This document shows, piece by piece, positions 1-7,316 of a DNA stretch of 9,321 bases. Numbering within the stretch: the stretch's first letter is position 1; the number at the start of each line of letters is the position of its first letter. The notes under the pieces were generated by a model. That model was not told where the DNA came from, did not search any database, and worked only from the letters and a program-made list of their open reading frames with translations. The stretch comes from a virus (lineage: Duplodnaviria > Heunggongvirae > Uroviricota > Caudoviricetes). The translations under genes and the position numbers were made by a program. The stretch lies in the IMG/VR virus record IMGVR_UViG_2728369185_000012; one strand, 5' to 3'.

Positions 1-243
1 TGTGGTGATCCCGTTTTCCCGGAAAGCCAGAACCCACTGGCGGCGGATTTCGTTCAGTTCGTTCTGGTCACGGTTAGCCAGACTCGCCGGGAAAGTTGCC
101 AGTAACTGGCTGAACACACCGTTGATGATCTGCGCTACCTGCTGTACCTGCGGCTTTTCGTCGTACTGTTCCGGCATGTTGTTGGCGATCCGACGCATCT
201 GCTCACGGTCAAAATTAACCATCTGTGCGGCGATGTTTTTCAT
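1..243 (-). CDS. P: Replication protein P (DnaB helicase loader), N-terminal 81 codons; the gene continues beyond the window start
   Basis: Reverse-complement of 1-243 translates from ATG (241-243) as MKNIAAQMVNFDREQMRRIANNMPEQYDEKPQVQQVAQIINGVFSQLLATFPASLANRDQNELNEIRRQWVLAFRENGITT, which I recognise as the lambda P N-terminus. The start overlaps the O stop (ATGA). It is absent from the ORF track only because it is open at the window edge. Confidence 0.9.
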   Translation of the reverse strand, partial: MKNIAAQMVNFDREQMRRIANNMPEQYDEKPQVQQVAQIINGVFSQLLATFPASLANRDQNELNEIRRQWVLAFRENGITT

Positions 244-1169
244 AAATCCACCCCGTAAATCCAGTCAGTGTTTGTCAGGTCGAGTTTTGGTTTGCAGGCT
301 GTCACACCTGCCTGTTGCTTGTTACGGTTGATTTCGAGCTGGGTCCACTTGTCGCGGAGTTTGGCCGGGCTCAGCACGTTACCGGACCAGAAGTTGTCCT
401 GGCATGCCCAGCGGAACAGTACACACATGTCGCGATGGTTACGTCCGTCACGTTCACGCATCAGGCGGATATCGTTAGCCCACCCTGCAAAATTCGGTTT
501 TCTGGCTGATGGCGCGATGGTCTTCACCATGTCAAACATCCACTCTGCGGCGGTCAGGTCTTCTGCTGTCCCCCACCTGCTGCCGCTCTGAATTGCAGCA
601 TCTGGTTTCTCCACAGGAAGGTCGTTTTCTGGCTGGTCAGAGGATTCGCCAGAATTCTCGGACGAAAAAGGTTTTATATTGTCTTTTGTTAGTTTGTCTT
701 TTGTGTTTACCTGATTCGGGTAAACGTCTTTACCTGATTTGGGTAAACTTTTTTTACCTGATTCAGGTAAATTTACCTCTTTCAGGTAAACTTTATTTTT
801 CTTACCTGATTCGGGTAATGTTGACCATTCACTGACCACATTATTAATGCCGATATTCCGCCCGCTCTGAATAAAAATCCCACGCTTTACCAGAACACTT
901 TTTGCAGCAGAACACTTGTGCGGCAATATCCCGGTCAACTCGGAAAGTTGCTCGTTGCTCACCCAATCCAGTTTTTTATTAAAGCCATATGTTTTGCGCA
1001 TGACAGCCAGGAAGACCAGAAGCTGGTGCTGTGTTAATCCGGCCAGCATTACAGCTTCCAGCAACTCATTTGCAATGCGCGTATAACCATCATCGAGATC
1101 TGCCACGCGCGGCTCCTTTTGTGCCGCATCCGGCACTGGAAAATTGAATATCTCAGCAGTGTTTGCCAT
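240..1169 (-). CDS. O: Replication initiator protein O (origin-binding), about 309 aa
   Basis: The ORF-track protein from the internal Met (MANTAEIFNF...VADLDDGYTRI...) aligns with the lambda O N-terminus (MTNTAKILNF...VADLDDGYARL), and the C-terminus (...NFWSGNVLSPAKLRDKWTQLEINRNKQQAGVTACKPKLDLTNTDWIYGVDL) is lambda-like. GGAGG lies 4 nt upstream of the ATG at 1167-1169. The ORF track's longer 1259 start is an upstream in-frame extension. The TGA stop at 240-242 overlaps the P start. Confidence 0.88.
   Translation of the reverse strand: MANTAEIFNFPVPDAAQKEPRVADLDDGYTRIANELLEAVMLAGLTQHQLLVFLAVMRKTYGFNKKLDWVSNEQLSELTGILPHKCSAAKSVLVKRGIFIQSGRNIGINNVVSEWSTLPESGKKNKVYLKEVNLPESGKKSLPKSGKDVYPNQVNTKDKLTKDNIKPFSSENSGESSDQPENDLPVEKPDAAIQSGSRWGTAEDLTAAEWMFDMVKTIAPSARKPNFAGWANDIRLMRERDGRNHRDMCVLFRWACQDNFWSGNVLSPAKLRDKWTQLEINRNKQQAGVTACKPKLDLTNTDWIYGVDL
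707..819. repeat. Replication origin iterons: five tandem copies of a ~19-bp inverted-repeat unit (TTACCTGATTCGGGTAAAC and variants) inside the O coding region, with an AT-rich tract at about 640-706
   Basis: Directly seen copies at about 707-725, 730-748, 755-773, 774-792 and 802-819, each with TTACC...GGTAA dyad symmetry. The adjacent tract 640-706 is T-rich (gttttatattgtcttttgttagtttgtcttttgtg). The layout matches lambda ori, which has iterons plus an AT-rich region within O. Confidence 0.75.
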
Positions 1170-1255
1170 AATTCCTCCCGCAATGAGTGTGTTACGATTT
1201 GCACCTGAAAGTCGGTTCTGTTCCCGCAGACCGACTTTCGCCATTTTTGAACCTG

Positions 1256-1801
1256 TCATATTGCCCCCAGCATGGTGGTGACCATCGCCATCAATGGACC
1301 AGCCAGATCCGGGTCCACTCGAAACATCGACACAATGCCTTCACTCATCTCCTTCAGTTTCTGGTGGCGTGGTGCGTTGAGAATGACCGCCTGCTTTGCC
1401 TCACTGAGTTCCTTTTCCATTTCAGCCAGCCGAGCCATGAAGCTATCCTGCTCAACCAGGTGGCCGCGATATTCCAGCGGTAGTACCGCCAGAATTGCCG
1501 GGGTCAGTTCACGCACGTTATTTCGGTATTTTTCAGAATCGAATTTGTTATCGAGGAAGCGGAACAGCTTCTGGCGTGCACGACTGACATCATCAGGAAA
1601 ATCGATGGTGCCGCCGCCCTGTGCTCGATACTCATTCACAATGAGTGCGGCAACTACATCCTGATTATCTTCAGCAGACCAGGCGCGGACGGCATCACGA
1701 ATTTTTTCGTGGCCTGGCACCTGTTTTATTTGAGAACGATTTATCACCGCAGTCGGGCTAAATCCGCTAGTCTGTTGGTATGTAAGTGGTTGCATAATCA
1801 T
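1256..1801 (-). CDS. CII-position regulatory protein (YdaT-like, CII functional equivalent), 181 aa
   Basis: ORF between cro and O on the same strand. ATG at 1799-1801 with a weak AAGG upstream; the stop overlaps the upstream in-frame extension of O. The protein (MIMQPLTYQQTSGF...) is not lambda CII. Its position and size fit the YdaS/YdaT-type immunity modules of CP-933P/Rac-like prophages; family assignment is from memory, not a search. Confidence 0.65.
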   Translation of the reverse strand: MIMQPLTYQQTSGFSPTAVINRSQIKQVPGHEKIRDAVRAWSAEDNQDVVAALIVNEYRAQGGGTIDFPDDVSRARQKLFRFLDNKFDSEKYRNNVRELTPAILAVLPLEYRGHLVEQDSFMARLAEMEKELSEAKQAVILNAPRHQKLKEMSEGIVSMFRVDPDLAGPLMAMVTTMLGAI

Positions 1802-1825: not shown

Positions 1826-2053
1826 TTAGGCGGCAGAATTACTCGCGTTAAACAATGGTGCGAGGTCGGGACGAATATCTGCTGGCTTAATCTTTCCACC
1901 AGTGGCTGAGACAATTTTCATTACATAGCGGGCATCAATTCCGCCACCGTGTAGCCAACGCCAAACAGTGGGCTGGGCTACACCGCATAGATCTGCCAGT
2001 CGTTTTTGACTACCTGTAATACTGATTGCGAGTTGAATGGTTTGATTTGTCAT
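1826..2053 (-). CDS. cro: Cro-like HTH repressor (YdaS-type), 75 aa
   Basis: First gene leftward from the divergent operator region. ATG at 2051-2053 is preceded by AGGA; the ORF-track start at 2059 is a TTG two codons upstream. HTH segment SQKRLADLCGVAQPTVWRW; stop TAA at 1826-1828. Confidence 0.75.
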   Translation of the reverse strand: MTNQTIQLAISITGSQKRLADLCGVAQPTVWRWLHGGGIDARYVMKIVSATGGKIKPADIRPDLAPLFNASNSAA

Positions 2054-2084
2054 TATCAATTCCTATTGGTATTACAATGAATGA

Positions 2085-2127: not shown

Positions 2128-2156
2128 TTGACCATCAATACGCAAGCGTATAAATT
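2128..2156 (+). promoter_or_regulatory. PRM-like promoter candidate for cI (weak; transcript probably leaderless)
   Basis: -35 TTGACC (2128-2133) and -10 TATAAA/TAAATT (2149-2156) with a 15-17 bp spacer, placing the start site at or near the ATG at 2164. There is no Shine-Dalgarno before 2164, as with lambda cI from PRM. Palindrome ATACGCAAGCGTAT at 2138-2151 overlaps it. Confidence 0.3.
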
Positions 2157-2163
2157 AAAACTT

Positions 2164-2856
2164 ATGAAAAAAGAAACTCTTGCTGATCGCTTAAACCTAG
2201 CGATGGAACAATCTGGGATGTCTCAAGGCGCTCTTGCAAAGGCGTCTGGCGTAGCTCAACCCACAATCTGGAGACTGACAAGCGGCAACGCGCGCGGCTC
2301 AACAAAAATTGTTGAAATAGCTAATGCATTGGGTGTTCGAACAGAGTGGCTCTCATCAGGCATAGGCCCGATGAGAAATGACGGTCAACAATCAGGGAAG
2401 CCTACTGTCAACCATTCCAAATACTTCAAGATTGACGTTCTTGATATAGAAGTCAGTGCTGGGCCGGGAGTCATCAACCGTGAGTTTGTAGAAGTCCTAC
2501 GCTCGGTTGAGTACTCGTTTGACGATGCTCGTCACATGTTCGATGGCAGGAAGGCGGAAAATATCCGCATCATTAACGTGCGTGGTGACAGCATGTCAGG
2601 AACGATCGAACCAGGTGATCTGCTGTTCGTTGATATCACGGTTAAATCTTTCGACGGTGATGGCATCTATGCGTTTCTGTACGACGACACCGCCCATGTA
2701 AAGCGCCTGCAAATGATGAAGGATAAGCTGCTGGTTATCTCTGATAACAAGAGCTACTCACCGTGGGACCCGATCGAGAAAGACGAGATGAACCGGGTGT
2801 TCATCTTCGGTAAGGTTATTGGGAGCATGCCCCAGACGTACAGGAAACATGGATAA
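2164..2856 (+). CDS. cI: CI-type prophage repressor (N-terminal HTH plus C-terminal LexA/S24 autopeptidase domain), about 230 aa
   Basis: HTH SQGALAKASGVAQPTIWRL; candidate Ala-Gly cleavage site (EVSAGPG); S24 catalytic motifs GDSM (Ser) and HVKRL (Lys). Start chosen at ATG 2164 (MKKETL...) to leave room for the divergent operators; the ORF-track start at 2107 is an alternative. Stop TAA at 2854-2856. Confidence 0.85.
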   Translation: MKKETLADRLNLAMEQSGMSQGALAKASGVAQPTIWRLTSGNARGSTKIVEIANALGVRTEWLSSGIGPMRNDGQQSGKPTVNHSKYFKIDVLDIEVSAGPGVINREFVEVLRSVEYSFDDARHMFDGRKAENIRIINVRGDSMSGTIEPGDLLFVDITVKSFDGDGIYAFLYDDTAHVKRLQMMKDKLLVISDNKSYSPWDPIEKDEMNRVFIFGKVIGSMPQTYRKHG

Positions 2857-2922
2857 TCAGCACTGTGCTGATGAGTCGTTTAGGGGATAGTAAATTTAAT
2901 TAGAATTAGACGAGAGCGATTT

Positions 2923-3786
2923 ATGGATTGTGACGCTTTACAGGATATAAAAATCTCTCTTAGGTATGACGGAAAAGATGCTTTAAATCATGAAATAGAT
3001 TTGAACTGCCTAGGAGAATCCCTAAAGGGTTTTTCTAAAGTTCTCTCAACAGCAGCTTCTTTCTCTGTTACACAAAAATATAGTAAATACATTAATTATC
3101 AGGAAGTTAAGGTTTACGCACGCGAAGCAAAAGCTAACTGCTTTACTCTTGAAGCAGTTCTTAACTTCGCCACTCAGAACCAGTTGTTCTCGGGGATCGC
3201 CGCAACTATACTTGGCGCAATACTACAATATATTTTTGCGAGAAATTCTAACAAGAAAGATGAAATGAAAGCTTTGCAGCAGTCACTTGAAAAGGCCATA
3301 GAGGCACTAGGAAACAAGGATGCTGGAACCATTGATAAGTTGATCTCTTTGATTGACCGAATGGCTGTAGAGCTTCGCCCCTCTGTAAGGCAGGCAGTAT
3401 CACCTATTGGTAATACTTGCGATCAGATAAGTGTTGCAACAAATGTTGACGGCTGCCTTCTAAAAGTTAATGAGAGAGATAAAGCTGAAATTGATAGGCT
3501 TGATGATGATGAAGTTCTCGGTCTTCGTGAGTATCGTGCTTTTCTTACAGAATTTGATGCACAAAATATGACAGCTAAAATAATTTTAGATGGTGATGAC
3601 TCAAAAAAGAGAATCACTGCTGAAATTAGCGATCCAGCTGCAGGAAAGAAGAATAACCCGTATATTAGAGCTCTTAGTGCATATATATCAACCAAAGGTG
3701 ATCCATCTGCAGTATTCACTATAACCGCAAAGGCTACTGTTAAAAAAGGCCAGATAAACAGGTTATTTATTGTAGATGCGAAATGA
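2923..3786 (+). CDS. Hypothetical protein of unknown function, 287 aa, cotranscribed with cI; AT-rich moron in the slot equivalent to lambda rexA-rexB; candidate defence/exclusion gene
   Basis: Clean ORF starting 67 bp after the cI stop on the same strand, with an intrinsic terminator immediately downstream. The first 60 nt sample about 37% G+C. One hydrophobic segment ([19 protein letters not shown], about nt 3184-3240) lies between hydrophilic domains. I recognise no similarity to RexA/RexB or any other family. Confidence 0.8.
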
Positions 3787-3788
3787 TT

Positions 3789-3817
3789 TCCCCGGCCGTC
3801 GTGCCGGGTTTTCTTTT
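3789..3817 (+). terminator. Rho-independent terminator ending the cI-moron operon
   Basis: Stem CCCGGC (3791-3796), loop CGTCGT, stem GCCGGG (3803-3808), followed by TTTTCTTTT (3809-3817), directly after the stop at 3786. Confidence 0.75.
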
Positions 3818-3938
3818 GCCTCCCCTCATCACACACCGTTCAAAAAACCACCATAACCCCCGCTTCAGTTATCGCTATGCGATGCAAGTCACAAAATTAA
3901 TTCCTTTTGCTATCAAACAGTTAATATCAAAATGCATC

Positions 3939-3984
3939 AATCAATAGCAATAAGTATTGATATCACTAATAGCAATAGCTATTA
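3939..3984 (+). promoter_or_regulatory. PL-like sigma70 promoter with two operator sites (OL)
   Basis: -35 TTGATA (3956-3961), 17-bp spacer, -10 TATTAT (3979-3984). An 18-bp palindrome TAATAGC-AATA-GCTATTA (3966-3983) overlaps the spacer and -10. A second site, TCAATAGCAATAAGTATTGA (3940-3959), has TCAATA/TATTGA inverted arms. The 9-mer AATAGCAAT occurs at 3942-3950 and 3967-3975. Confidence 0.5.
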
Positions 3985-4178
3985 TCACCATGTCGCAACA
4001 ACACAACGATACGGCAACCACCTGATTCGCCGTTGCGATGACCGCTTAGATCCGCAGCTTGAATTTCAGCAGGCTCCGGGGAGTGCGAGGGGTGAAGCGG
4101 ACGCGTTAACGTCGGTGTGACCAGCTGAAATCAACTCAACACTTCATACCTCAGTCGCTTCAACGAGGCGGCTTAGTT

Positions 4179-4469
4179 ATGACAACCGGCGGCCATCCAC
4201 CGCCTGAATACGCGCAGAAGTCTCTATATGTTCAGCAGCCCAGCTTACGGGCAGGAGTTTTTATGGTTCATCAACATTACGGAACTCAGACCGTTAATCG
4301 CGGTGCCGTCCGGCCAGGTATGCTGGTTAAACACAAAGATGGTACCTGGACGGCATCAGCTAATTTGCGCGGTCGGCTTTACTTGCATCGCGGCATCGAA
4401 CGAACGTACACAAAAGATTTGCTCGTGGAGGTTTACCTGAATGGTACTGGCGGTGGTCTGAGCCACTAA
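4179..4469 (+). CDS. Hypothetical basic protein, 96 aa; first ORF downstream of the PL-like promoter (N-position); coding status uncertain
   Basis: ATG at 4179 preceded by GAGGCGG. The protein is net basic and Gly/Pro-rich (MTTGGHPPPEY...) with no Arg-rich N-terminal motif. No homology recognised. Confidence 0.3.
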   Translation: MTTGGHPPPEYAQKSLYVQQPSLRAGVFMVHQHYGTQTVNRGAVRPGMLVKHKDGTWTASANLRGRLYLHRGIERTYTKDLLVEVYLNGTGGGLSH

Positions 4470-4473
4470 CTAC

Positions 4474-4779
4474 TCACTTGTTTGGGCCGTGTGGAGCCAA
4501 AGCAAATTCAAGGTTGTAGATACTCCCATCAGGGGCTTTGAAATCAACCTCAAACCGAGATGGCGGATTGAATGGATCGAGTACATTTTCTGCTACGCAT
4601 GTAGATCTCCAATTGATATGGCCTTTGCCAAGCGAGCGAGATTCCCACCAAGCTCTCCAGGTCTGGTCTTGCGGTTGATCACTCCCCTTTTCCCTTACAT
4701 ACCAATGATTCTTTTTCGACTGCTTACCCATTTCTGCGGTTGGGTACATCGGAGAAGACTTTAACTTATCAATCAGCAT
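4474..4779 (-). CDS. Hypothetical protein, about 101 aa, transcribed opposite to the PL operon (sieB-like orientation)
   Basis: ATG at 4777-4779 with AAGGTG 6 nt upstream on the minus strand; the ORF-track start at 4788 is GTG. The protein (MLIDKLKSSPMYPTAEMGKQSKKNHWYVREKG...) has balanced composition, whereas the plus-strand ORF 4489-4764 on the opposite strand looks less protein-like. No homology recognised. Confidence 0.45.
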   Translation of the reverse strand: MLIDKLKSSPMYPTAEMGKQSKKNHWYVREKGSDQPQDQTWRAWWESRSLGKGHINWRSTCVAENVLDPFNPPSRFEVDFKAPDGSIYNLEFALAPHGPNK

Positions 4780-4917
4780 TCTAGACACCTTATTTATCAG
4801 ATTTTGAGCAAGACATAGTGTGATCCAACATTTTGATTAATCAAGCGAGTTCATTCAAACAACTATGCAGTTAACGCACTGTCTGGATCCGCACATCAAA
4901 ATTTCAGGAGTTTATCC

Positions 4918-5219: not shown

Positions 5220-6065
5220 ATGAGTACAGCACTCGCAACGCTGGCTGGGAAGCTGGCTGAACGTGTCGGCATGGATTCTGTCGACCCACAGGAACTGATC
5301 ACCACTCTTCGCCAGANNNNNNNNNNNNNNNNNNNNNNNNNNNNNNNNNNNNNNNNNNNNNNNNNNNNNNNNNNNNNNNNNNNNNNNNNNNNNNNNNNNN
5401 NNNNNNNNNNNNNNNNNNNNNNNNNNNNNNNNNNNNNNNNNNNNNNNNNNNNNNNNNNNNNNNNNNNNNNNNNNNNNNNNNNNNNNNNNNNNNNNNNCGT
5501 TCCGGTGGTGGGCGTTGATGGCTGGTCCCGCATCATCAATGAAAACCAGCAGTTTGATGGCATGGACTTTGAGCAGGACAATGAATCCTGTACATGCCGG
5601 ATTTACCGCAAGGACCGTAATCATCCGATCTGCGTTACCGAATGGATGGATGAATGCCGCCGCGAACCATTCAAAACTCGCGAAGGCAGAGAAATCACGG
5701 GGCCGTGGCAGTCGCATCCCAAACGGATGTTACGGCATAAAGCCATGATTCAGTGTGCCCGTCTGGCCTTCGGATTTGCTGGTATCTATGACAAGGATGA
5801 AGCCGAGCGCATTGTCGAAAATACCGCATACACTGCAGAACGTCAGCCGGAACGCGACATCACTCCGGTTAACGATGAAACCATGCAGGAGATTAACACT
5901 CTGCTGATCGCCCTGGATAAAACATGGGATGACGACTTATTGCCGCTCTGTTCCCAGATATTTCGCCGCGACATTCGCGCCTCGTCAGAACTGACACAGG
6001 CCGAAGCAGTGAAAGCTCTTGGATTCCTGAAACAGAAAGCCACTGAGCAGAAGGTGGCAGCATGA
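5220..6065 (+). CDS. bet: Bet (Redbeta) single-strand annealing recombinase; the central part is masked by an N-run
   Basis: The N-terminus [32 protein letters not shown] and the C-terminal 188 aa ([26 protein letters not shown]...ATEQKVAA) match lambda Bet. Reading frame is preserved across N 5317-5497. Start is 5 nt after the gam stop; the stop overlaps the exo start (ATGA). Confidence 0.9.
5317..5497. other. Run of 181 undetermined bases (N) inside bet
   Basis: Directly seen. The flanking codons are in the same frame. Confidence 1.
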
Positions 6066-6742: not shown

Positions 6743-6921
6743 CGCATCCTCACGATAATATCCGGGTAGGCGCGATCACTTTCGTCTACTCCGTTACAAA
6801 GCGAGGCTGGGTATTTCCCGGCCTTTCTGTTATCAGAAATCCACTGAAAGCACAGCGGCTGGCTGAGAAGATAAATAATAAACGGGAGGCGGTATGCACA
6901 AAGCATCTCCTGTTGAGTTAA
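6739..6921 (+). CDS. Lambda orf60a-like small protein, 60 aa
   Basis: [60 protein letters not shown] matches lambda orf60a as recalled. ATG at 6739 overlaps the exo stop (ATGA). Confidence 0.8.
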
Positions 6922-7006
6922 GAACGAGTATTGAGATGGCACATAGCCTTGCTCAAATTGGAGTCAGGTTTGTGCCAATACCAGCAGAAACAGACGAAGA
7001 ATTTCA
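6894..7006 (+). CDS. Lambda orf63-like small protein; only the first 37 codons are visible and the 3' end lies inside the N-run
   Basis: GGGAGG RBS at 6883-6888 and ATG at 6894. [37 protein letters not shown] matches the lambda orf63 N-terminus. By the length of lambda orf63 the stop would fall near 7085, inside the masked run. Confidence 0.75.
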
Positions 7007-7100
7007 NNNNNNNNNNNNNNNNNNNNNNNNNNNNNNNNNNNNNNNNNNNNNNNNNNNNNNNNNNNNNNNNNNNNNNNNNNNNNNNNNNNNNNNNNNNNNN
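7007..7100. other. Run of 94 undetermined bases (N) covering the orf63 3' end and the junction with orf61
   Basis: Directly seen. Its length is consistent with the missing orf63 codons plus a short spacer. Confidence 1.
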
Positions 7101-7316
7101 ATGACACCTCAGCAAGAAAACGCCCTTCGCAGCATTGCCCGTCAGGCTAATTCTGAAATCAAAAAAGCCAGACAGCATTTTCCGGATAAAAACGTCGATG
7201 ACATTTGCCGTAGCGTACTAAAGAAGCACCGCGAAACGGTAACGCTGATGGGATTCACACCGACTCATTTAAGCCTGGCGATCGGCATGTTGAACGGCGT
7301 CTTTAAGGAACGGTGA
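7101..7316 (+). CDS. Lambda orf61-like small protein (start could lie inside the N-run)
   Basis: MTPQQENALRSIARQANSEIKKARQHFPDKNVDDICRSVLKKHRETVTLMGFTPTHLSLAIGMLNGVFKER with stop TGA at 7314-7316. The ATG at 7101 is the first base after the masked run. Confidence 0.75.
   Translation: MTPQQENALRSIARQANSEIKKARQHFPDKNVDDICRSVLKKHRETVTLMGFTPTHLSLAIGMLNGVFKER

Follow-up and report, generated by a model that had tools for sequence, protein, structure and literature searches.

An uncharacterised repressor-linked moron of a lambdoid prophage with a probable role in defence

The DNA stretch analysed here (9,321 nt; IMG/VR record IMGVR_UViG_2728369185_000012; hereafter, the window) carries the immunity region of a lambdoid prophage together with the early-left part that follows. 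Directly downstream of its cI-type repressor gene lies an open reading frame (ORF) of 287 codons, referred to here as the target gene, which is an uncharacterised, repressor-linked moron with, probably, a defensive role. It was considered a defence candidate because other copies of the prophage fill this slot of the repressor operon with genes which are themselves defence candidates. The favoured explanation as a whole, namely a moron co-expressed with cI that provides stand-alone defence through a membrane effector, was given a probability of about 0.45, while an anti-phage role as such, judged from the genetic context, is fairly likely. The repressor gene, the target gene and the surrounding control elements are located as follows (window positions).

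2053-2163: OR region, with an operator repeat (2053-2072) and the PR-like and PRM-like promoters
2113->2085, minus strand: PR-like promoter
2128-2156, plus strand: PRM-like promoter, TTGACC-17-TAAATT
2164-2856, plus strand: cI-type repressor of 230 amino acids (RefSeq start), with helix-turn-helix (HTH) and Peptidase_S24 domains
2857-2922, plus strand: spacer of 66 nt from the cI stop to the target ORF
2923-3786, plus strand: target ORF, DUF7946+DUF7947, 287 amino acids, 31.6 kDa
3791-3818, plus strand: intrinsic terminator, with its stem at 3791-3808 (6 G-C pairs, -12.1 kcal/mol) and then TTTTCTTTTG
3894-3913, 3944-3963 and 3969-3988: OL operators, a palindrome of ~20 bp, ATAGCAAT-N4-ATTGNTAT
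3957-3985, plus strand: PL-like promoter, TTGATA-17-TATTAT, which drives kil-gam-bet-exo

The arrangement of these elements suggests that the repressor and the target gene are expressed together. No terminator-like site was found on the plus strand of the 66-nt spacer, which contains just a 7-bp hairpin without U-tract (2857-2871, -7.9 kcal/mol) and the GAGAG Shine-Dalgarno sequence of the target ORF (2912-2916). Behind the gene, the terminator hairpin begins 4 nt past the stop codon. The operator repeat ATAGCAAT-N4-ATTGNTAT gave six matches against 0.1 expected by chance and is also present at OR, between cro and cI; the downstream site was assigned to OL/PL because its promoter overlaps two operator copies. 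At the other end of the unit, the -10 hexamer of the PRM-like promoter ends 7 nt ahead of the RefSeq ATG of cI; with a promoter so placed the cI mRNA would probably lack a leader, as does that of lambda. From this architecture, which is conserved among relatives, it is very probable that the target gene is a lysogenic gene co-transcribed with the repressor. An earlier reading of the same DNA, made from the letters alone (the sequence-only reading), had already noticed the 287-codon ORF, the lack of a terminator between it and cI, the strong terminator right after it, the PL-like promoter further on and an AT-rich composition with respect to the neighbouring genes (given as about 37% versus roughly 50% G+C). 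All these observations were confirmed, the distance to the cI stop being 66 nt instead of the 67 bp then given.

Some further properties of this region were recorded. RefSeq sets the cI start at 2164, while the program-made ORF begins at 2107, where it would overlap the minus-strand PR-like promoter. The spacer RNA (2857-2925) has a predicted fold of -16.5 kcal/mol (z -2.8), in which 2871-2882 is paired to both the Shine-Dalgarno sequence and the start codon; such pairing may dampen the translation of the cargo gene. The small hairpin right behind the cI stop is also found in the cargo allele of strain 2014C-3307.

The target gene is a horizontally exchanged prophage moron, and its base composition is moron-like, with a G+C content of 38.3% (29% at third codon positions), against 47.5% in cI and 50-53% across kil, gam, bet and exo. 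Its place in the genome behaves as a site of exchange. A full-length copy of the cI allele of the window occurs in 718 of the 5,426 complete Escherichia coli genomes, and the target gene in 76. In other copies of the same cI/cro/kil/gam/bet backbone, its place is taken by a SIR2 gene (PADLOC candidate PDC-S25), by a two-gene cassette matching the PADLOC candidates PDC-M11A/B (strain AVS0710) or by two small unknown ORFs (strain 2014C-3307). The four cargo types were found in 76, 166, 275 and ~200 genomes, which, compared as totals, give a sum close to 718. In alignments of the cargo alleles homology stops at or just past the cI stop, and because it breaks there the spacer (2857-2922) was taken as the left cargo junction. 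Homology resumes at the terminator in two of the three alternative alleles examined (2014C-3307 and AVS0710); the terminator at 3791-3818 is therefore probably part of the backbone rather than of the moron, as far as alignments can tell. The interval from the cI stop to the terminator appears to be a cargo exchange site in which the four types alternate. It offers a cleanly delimited slot in an E. coli prophage backbone, and a small, well-defined place in which to look for new defence genes, because two of its four cargo types (the pair of small ORFs and the target gene) have no assigned function.

The linkage to a repressor was then followed in relatives, using 98 loci made up of the window, its RefSeq and IMG/VR matches and contigs of distant relatives (the scan of genome contigs contributed 8 loci); 97 of them could be evaluated. 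A co-oriented S24 repressor gene stands immediately upstream in 84 of the 97, at a distance of 7-447 nt with a mode of 66. At 70% identity the repressors of these 84 loci form 23 clusters, against 16 clusters of the gene, and one gene cluster defined at 90% identity is paired with seven different repressor clusters; its movement is therefore not bound to the immunity type, although it arrives in the same slot. When 26 representative loci were inspected, no terminator separated the repressor from the gene in any of them, and in all 26 an intrinsic terminator was present at most 40 nt after the gene. The same arrangement was found in prophages of Morganella, Vitreoscilla, Neisseria and Mannheimia with unrelated replication modules. 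As for the neighbours of distant homologs, a PDC-S25 SIR2 gene lies just downstream in Vitreoscilla (locus L007, 6661-8274), higBA just downstream in Neisseria (locus L012, 4019-4564) and an Abi_2 gene nearby in an AlpA island of Serratia (locus L009, 2446-3408), while in Rahnella (locus L015) DinI-like genes adjoin the gene.

So regular a linkage could also reflect a lysogen function other than defence which is tied to the S24 repressor, such as the tuning of induction by a sensor of single-stranded DNA or RecA filaments, an effect on host physiology or lysogenic conversion. The gene is associated almost exclusively with RecA-cleavable S24 repressors, the DinI-like genes of the Rahnella locus would fit, the structural matches of the C-terminal domain described below include SSB, RPA and PriB, and no validated defence family was matched. 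However, unrelated defence-candidate cargo occupies the same slot, so that the position reflects a cargo site and not a functional coupling; the gene pairs with 23 different repressor clusters, 13 loci have no upstream repressor at all, and the neighbours found elsewhere are defence or toxin-antitoxin genes. We consider this alternative improbable.

Profile searches assigned the protein to a family. Residues 11-191 matched Pfam DUF7946 along the complete profile (positions 1-183 of 183; E 3.8e-55, 187 bits, cut-off 27), residues 201-287 matched DUF7947 (E 1.4e-18, 67 bits, cut-off 27), and PHROG 5147 was matched over positions 1-287 of 287 (E 1.5e-178). With both Pfam scores well above the gathering cut-offs, the target protein is a member of the DUF7946+DUF7947 / PHROG 5147 family; the three entries are annotated as of unknown function. 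The family contains 496 clusters at 50% identity (E <=1e-3), nearly all of them of 270-300 amino acids. DUF7946 was detected in 108 of 108 aligned relatives and DUF7947 in 107 of them, and a profile search with the N-terminal domain only revealed no other architecture, DUF7946 being always accompanied by DUF7947 save in truncated entries.

The target gene is real and constrained, since its dN/dS (the ratio of nonsynonymous to synonymous substitution rates) of ~0.05 against homologs at 85% nucleotide identity denotes strong purifying selection. The alternative of a reading frame that is spurious, or in decay, within AT-rich DNA, for which its low G+C, one IS1-disrupted copy and several truncated database entries could be invoked, is effectively refuted by this ratio, by the 496 clusters of near-constant length, by the full-length Pfam matches far above their cut-offs and by a confident fold prediction. 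The disrupted copy is that of E. coli VG1046-3E9 (NZ_CP128594.1, 3681489-3683129), a single genome in which IS1A is inserted within the gene, and the truncated entries are N-terminal fragments of 87-193 amino acids; the target gene is therefore occasionally inactivated.

Among defence-related profiles, PDC-S42 matched the target protein with an E-value of 1.5e-4 over residues 9-127 (profile positions 4-113 of 302), an alignment that falls short of full length. The same profile was matched by 52 of the 108 family members over their N-terminal part (best E 3e-8); besides it, these members gave scattered single PADLOC matches only, at E 2e-4 or weaker. PDC-S42 resembles the target protein in being a single-gene candidate of ~300 amino acids whose N-terminal ~110 residues are alike, but the C-terminal two thirds are unaligned and PDC-S42 is itself an unvalidated candidate. 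On these alignments, PDC-S42 represents a sister family with an N-terminal module in common. Other hits were discarded: NCBIfam LAPAL_fam stayed below threshold (26 bits versus a cut-off of 60), and PHROG matches to holin and 'hol-like' entries (E ~0.1) reflect the hydrophobic helix of the protein. A search of the chains in the Protein Data Bank (PDB) with the family profile gave nothing meaningful, the best E-value being 0.02, over short helical stretches.

The target protein is 62% identical over 99% of the length to the product of gene 40A of bacteriophage phi80 (YP_007947967, formerly split into 40A/40B). Phage phi80 is a common laboratory contaminant. Its gene occupies the same slot, in the order cI, 40A and OL/PL, with a terminator directly after the gene, whereas its repressor, operators and backbone are unlike those of the window. 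We found no published function for 40A, and its designation as 'acetate kinase superfamily' in the record of phi80 received no support from Pfam, NCBIfam or PDB searches. Unlike lambda lysogens, phi80/Lula lysogens fail to plate T4, and they reduce the yield of P1 by ~10-fold (Rotman et al., 2010; PMC2885432). The known defences of phi80 are other genes: Cor, directed against FhuA-dependent phages, inactivates FhuA, while Tai, encoded by orf63 close to Q, prevents certain siphophages from assembling their tails. As neither of them obviously explains the resistance to T4, we propose gene 40A as a reasonable candidate for the T4 and P1 phenotype. The target gene itself should be confused neither with Tai, a 26-kDa product, nor with HepS, the HEPN protein of Gifsy-1, both of which were considered as identities and are different genes.

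The interval between cI and N is a mosaic hotspot, occupied by rexAB in lambda and by bstA in BTP1-like prophages, two abortive-infection systems thought to share the promoter of the repressor (PMC8585504). Like rexAB, the target gene lies between cI and OL/PL, is co-oriented with cI and is not separated from it by a terminator; the corresponding expectations would be that the lysogen expresses it from PRM and that phages of the T-even type are excluded. However, it is a single gene followed by a terminator, without a RexB-like partner with four transmembrane segments, and comparison with RexA and RexB by hhalign gave a probability of 0.2% each. The sequence-only reading had recognised no similarity to either of these proteins, which stands, nor to any known family, which does not, given the DUF7946+DUF7947 and PHROG 5147 assignments and phi80 40A. 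Lambda RexAB, which with its sensor and membrane effector excludes T4 rII and other phages by a loss of membrane potential, is a possible functional analogue; an indirect lead to such an effect is the T4 and P1 phenotype of phi80 lysogens (PMC2885432). The likeness to BstA is one of arrangement, as this is a single abortive-infection gene just downstream of the repressor with a presumably shared promoter and its own terminator (PMC8585504). The target protein differs from it in having no KilA-N or other DNA-binding N-terminal domain and no Pfam match to the BstA domain; with the BstA C-terminal-domain protein of the same prophage the hhalign probability was 0.1%. To a specialist, a defence candidate in the slot between cI and PL is unsurprising: the target gene is similar to rexAB and bstA in position and probable role and is a member of neither.

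The structure of the target protein was predicted with AlphaFold2 from the alignment of 108 sequences, and gave a compact model with a pLDDT (predicted local distance difference test) of 91.2 and a pTM (predicted template modelling score) of 0.73. Three elements of the protein are relevant for its possible mechanism.

2953-3495, plus strand: DUF7946 domain, residues 11-191, beta/alpha
3184-3240, plus strand: hydrophobic helix, residues 88-106, rich in small residues
3511-3783, plus strand: DUF7947 domain, residues 197-287, similar to an oligonucleotide/oligosaccharide-binding (OB) fold

In the model the protein is divided into residues 1-195 (DUF7946), which include the hydrophobic helix, and 197-287 (DUF7947). 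This division, on which Pfam and AlphaFold coincide, replaces that of the sequence-only reading, in which an N-terminal domain of ~85 residues and an acidic C-terminal domain of ~180 were separated by a probably membrane-spanning segment. The C-terminal domain is only mildly acidic (pI 6.6). The segment itself is indeed hydrophobic (residues 88-106, Kyte-Doolittle mean 1.85, above the threshold of 1.6), but its assignment as a membrane span is weak, with a Hessa-scale value of +1.6 kcal/mol and 48 of the 108 family members below the Kyte-Doolittle threshold.

The N-terminal domain has no match among solved structures. It bears the conserved motif RYDGxDAxxHxIxLxxLGxSLxG and a PIGxxC loop. DUF7947 was modelled as a closed five-stranded barrel (b1-b2-b3-alpha-b4-b5) whose third and fourth strands are joined through an alpha helix, as in the OB fold, and its structural matches include SSB, RPA and PriB; its conserved residues are D212, R230, D237, P238, N245, Y247 and K270. 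A Foldseek search against BFVD retrieved three uncharacterised phage proteins only. Across the family alignment the best-conserved positions are G17, S33, G36, P161, G163, D237, P238 and Y247, H23 and C166 being less so, and no convincing catalytic constellation emerged among the conserved residues. A Cys-His-Asp site (C166, H23, D16) was rejected, as these residues are just 77-87% conserved, whereas near-invariance is found mostly at Gly, Pro and Ser residues, to which D237 and Y247 are to be added. The hydrophobic helix has no charged residue over its 19 positions and shows a GxxxG-like spacing of small residues; it is followed by a basic flank, RNSNKK, and the helices on both sides of it are amphipathic.

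In the explanation that we favour, cI and the target ORF would form in the lysogen a bicistronic unit transcribed from the PRM-like promoter and ending at the terminator at 3791-3818, the target ORF being translated from its own weak Shine-Dalgarno sequence. The protein would protect the lysogen, and the prophage in it, from unrelated phages as a stand-alone single polypeptide, and given the phenotype of phi80 the obvious targets would be T-even phages and P1. Its C-terminal OB-fold barrel would act as the sensor of a phage-made ligand, nucleic acid or protein, and its N-terminal domain as the effector. At rest, helix 88-106 would be buried among the amphipathic helices; upon activation it would be released, self-associate and perturb the inner membrane. 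The outcome would be a Rex-like abortive infection carried out by one unrelated polypeptide. The membrane-disrupting CBASS (cyclic-oligonucleotide-based anti-phage signalling system) effector Cap15 combines one or more hydrophobic helices with a small ligand-binding beta-barrel in one polypeptide, a logic similar to that of the hydrophobic helix and beta-barrel sensor considered for the target protein. The effector step, perturbation of the membrane, was derived from the anatomy of the protein and is put forward only tentatively.

Several observations weigh against this explanation. Concerning the context, 13 of the 97 loci have no upstream repressor; in them the gene is placed like a moron at other sites of prophages or islands, for example in the AlpA island of Serratia adjoining Abi_2. 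The co-transcription of cI and the target ORF is predicted from the architecture. The protein gave no significant match to a validated system of PADLOC-DB v2.0.0, PDC families are themselves mere candidates, and in the library searched no paper was found to mention DUF7946, DUF7947 or PDC-S42. The T4 and P1 phenotype of phi80 lysogens has been assigned to no gene (PMC2885432). With respect to the protein, no signal peptide was found, and the simple Hessa-scale sum of helix 88-106 is borderline (+1.6 kcal/mol; +1.63), as is its status as a membrane span. In the family the median of this sum is +3.4 kcal/mol, and it is positive in all 108 members; the equivalent helix reaches a Kyte-Doolittle value of 1.6 in 60 of the 108 and remains below it in the other 48, and divergent members carry charged residues in it. 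The compact and confident model points to a soluble globular protein. Taken together, this model and the unconserved hydrophobicity are at least as compatible with a helix buried in the protein core as with one that spans the membrane constitutively.

Both properties favour a soluble inhibitor, the main rival to our explanation within defence. Here the OB fold would bind a phage component and block it stoichiometrically, and the helix would be the core of the N-terminal domain; the component could be structural, or else an intermediate of replication or recombination, in line with the interference of Tai or Tab with assembly or with the action of BstA at replication sites. The compactness and confidence of the model (pTM 0.73), a helix that in ~45% of the family is not like a transmembrane segment and in some members is charged, the positive Hessa sum throughout the 108 members, the lack of an evident catalytic constellation and the OB fold, a classic ligand-binding module, all agree with it, and every contextual argument for defence counts equally in its favour. 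However, a helix uncharged over 19 positions, rich in small residues and with GxxxG-like spacing would be unusual as a simple core helix in this subfamily, and we consider such a soluble inhibitor unlikely overall.

A different use of the helix would be that of a single-helix anchor in a constitutive inner-membrane protein which, in the manner of SieA, Imm or Sim, excludes superinfecting phages by blocking DNA entry. The Kyte-Doolittle mean of residues 88-106 would allow it, the basic flank RNSNKK fits a cytoplasmic C-terminal part, and expression in the lysogen is expected from the architecture. On the other hand, an N-terminal part of 87 residues without signal peptide would have to be exported, the hydrophobicity of the helix is not conserved across the family, residues 1-195, the helix included, make up a single domain in both Pfam and AlphaFold, and OB folds are typically soluble ligand binders. 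Membrane exclusion of this kind is very unlikely.

If the favoured explanation is correct in its defensive part, the target gene would enlarge the anti-phage repertoire by a single-gene system of uncharacterised mechanism, belonging to a family of ~500 clusters (50% identity) which reaches Enterobacterales, Pasteurellaceae, Neisseriaceae, Burkholderiales and others, and it would suggest which gene may lie behind the resistance of phi80 lysogens to T4 and P1, so far unexplained. Of interest are its lack of relationship to known systems, an N-terminal domain without match among solved structures, an unusually consistent wiring to the repressor and the ready test offered by phi80. In its strongest form, the proposal is that DUF7946/DUF7947 proteins constitute a new and widespread class of single-polypeptide abortive-infection proteins, driven by the repressor promoter, with an OB sensor that keeps the N-terminal domain latent and soluble until a phage product is bound, and a hydrophobic helix which then oligomerises in the inner membrane and collapses it, one unrelated protein thereby doing the work of RexA and RexB, and that they cause the T4 and P1 resistance of phi80; taken in full, this is speculative and rather unlikely.

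The other features of the window are those of the immunity region and of the PL operon.

240-1259, minus strand: replication gene O
1256-1801, minus strand: YdaT-type cII-like gene
1826-2059, minus strand: YdaS/Cro-like gene
4263-4469 (RefSeq): kil, in the PL operon

In addition, the window contains gam, bet, exo, DUF1317, a TraR/DksA zinc-finger gene, DUF4222, an HTH_17 ORF and a tyrosine integrase gene. Runs of N at 5317-5497 and 7007-7100 mask parts of bet and of ORF 6894-7316, and the composition profile is distorted there. No ORF for an N-like antiterminator was found between PL (3957-3985) and kil, in 3990-4262; a leader of ~190 nt (3990-4180) is near-invariant among the cargo alleles. 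No RNA family was found in the window with Rfam. A minus-strand ORF of 137 amino acids (3423..3836) overlaps the target gene; it is not annotated in RefSeq and was not treated as a gene. Another minus-strand ORF (4474-4788, 104 amino acids), placed antisense in the PL operon between kil and gam, is annotated in RefSeq, belongs to PHROG 16212 (unknown function) and has no Pfam match; it may be another moron.

Identical DNA was found in 76 of the 5,426 complete E. coli genomes, and it was chromosomal in every case. In E. coli N68 the prophage lies at the argU/DLP12 site, adjoining folD. In this strain the prophage has a nin region, beyond the window (locus L001, 1573-2502 and 3136-5252), which encodes a BstA C-terminal-domain protein, a P22AR C-terminal-domain protein, the ybcK serine recombinase and emrE; several morons of an accessory or defence-like kind are therefore present in the element.

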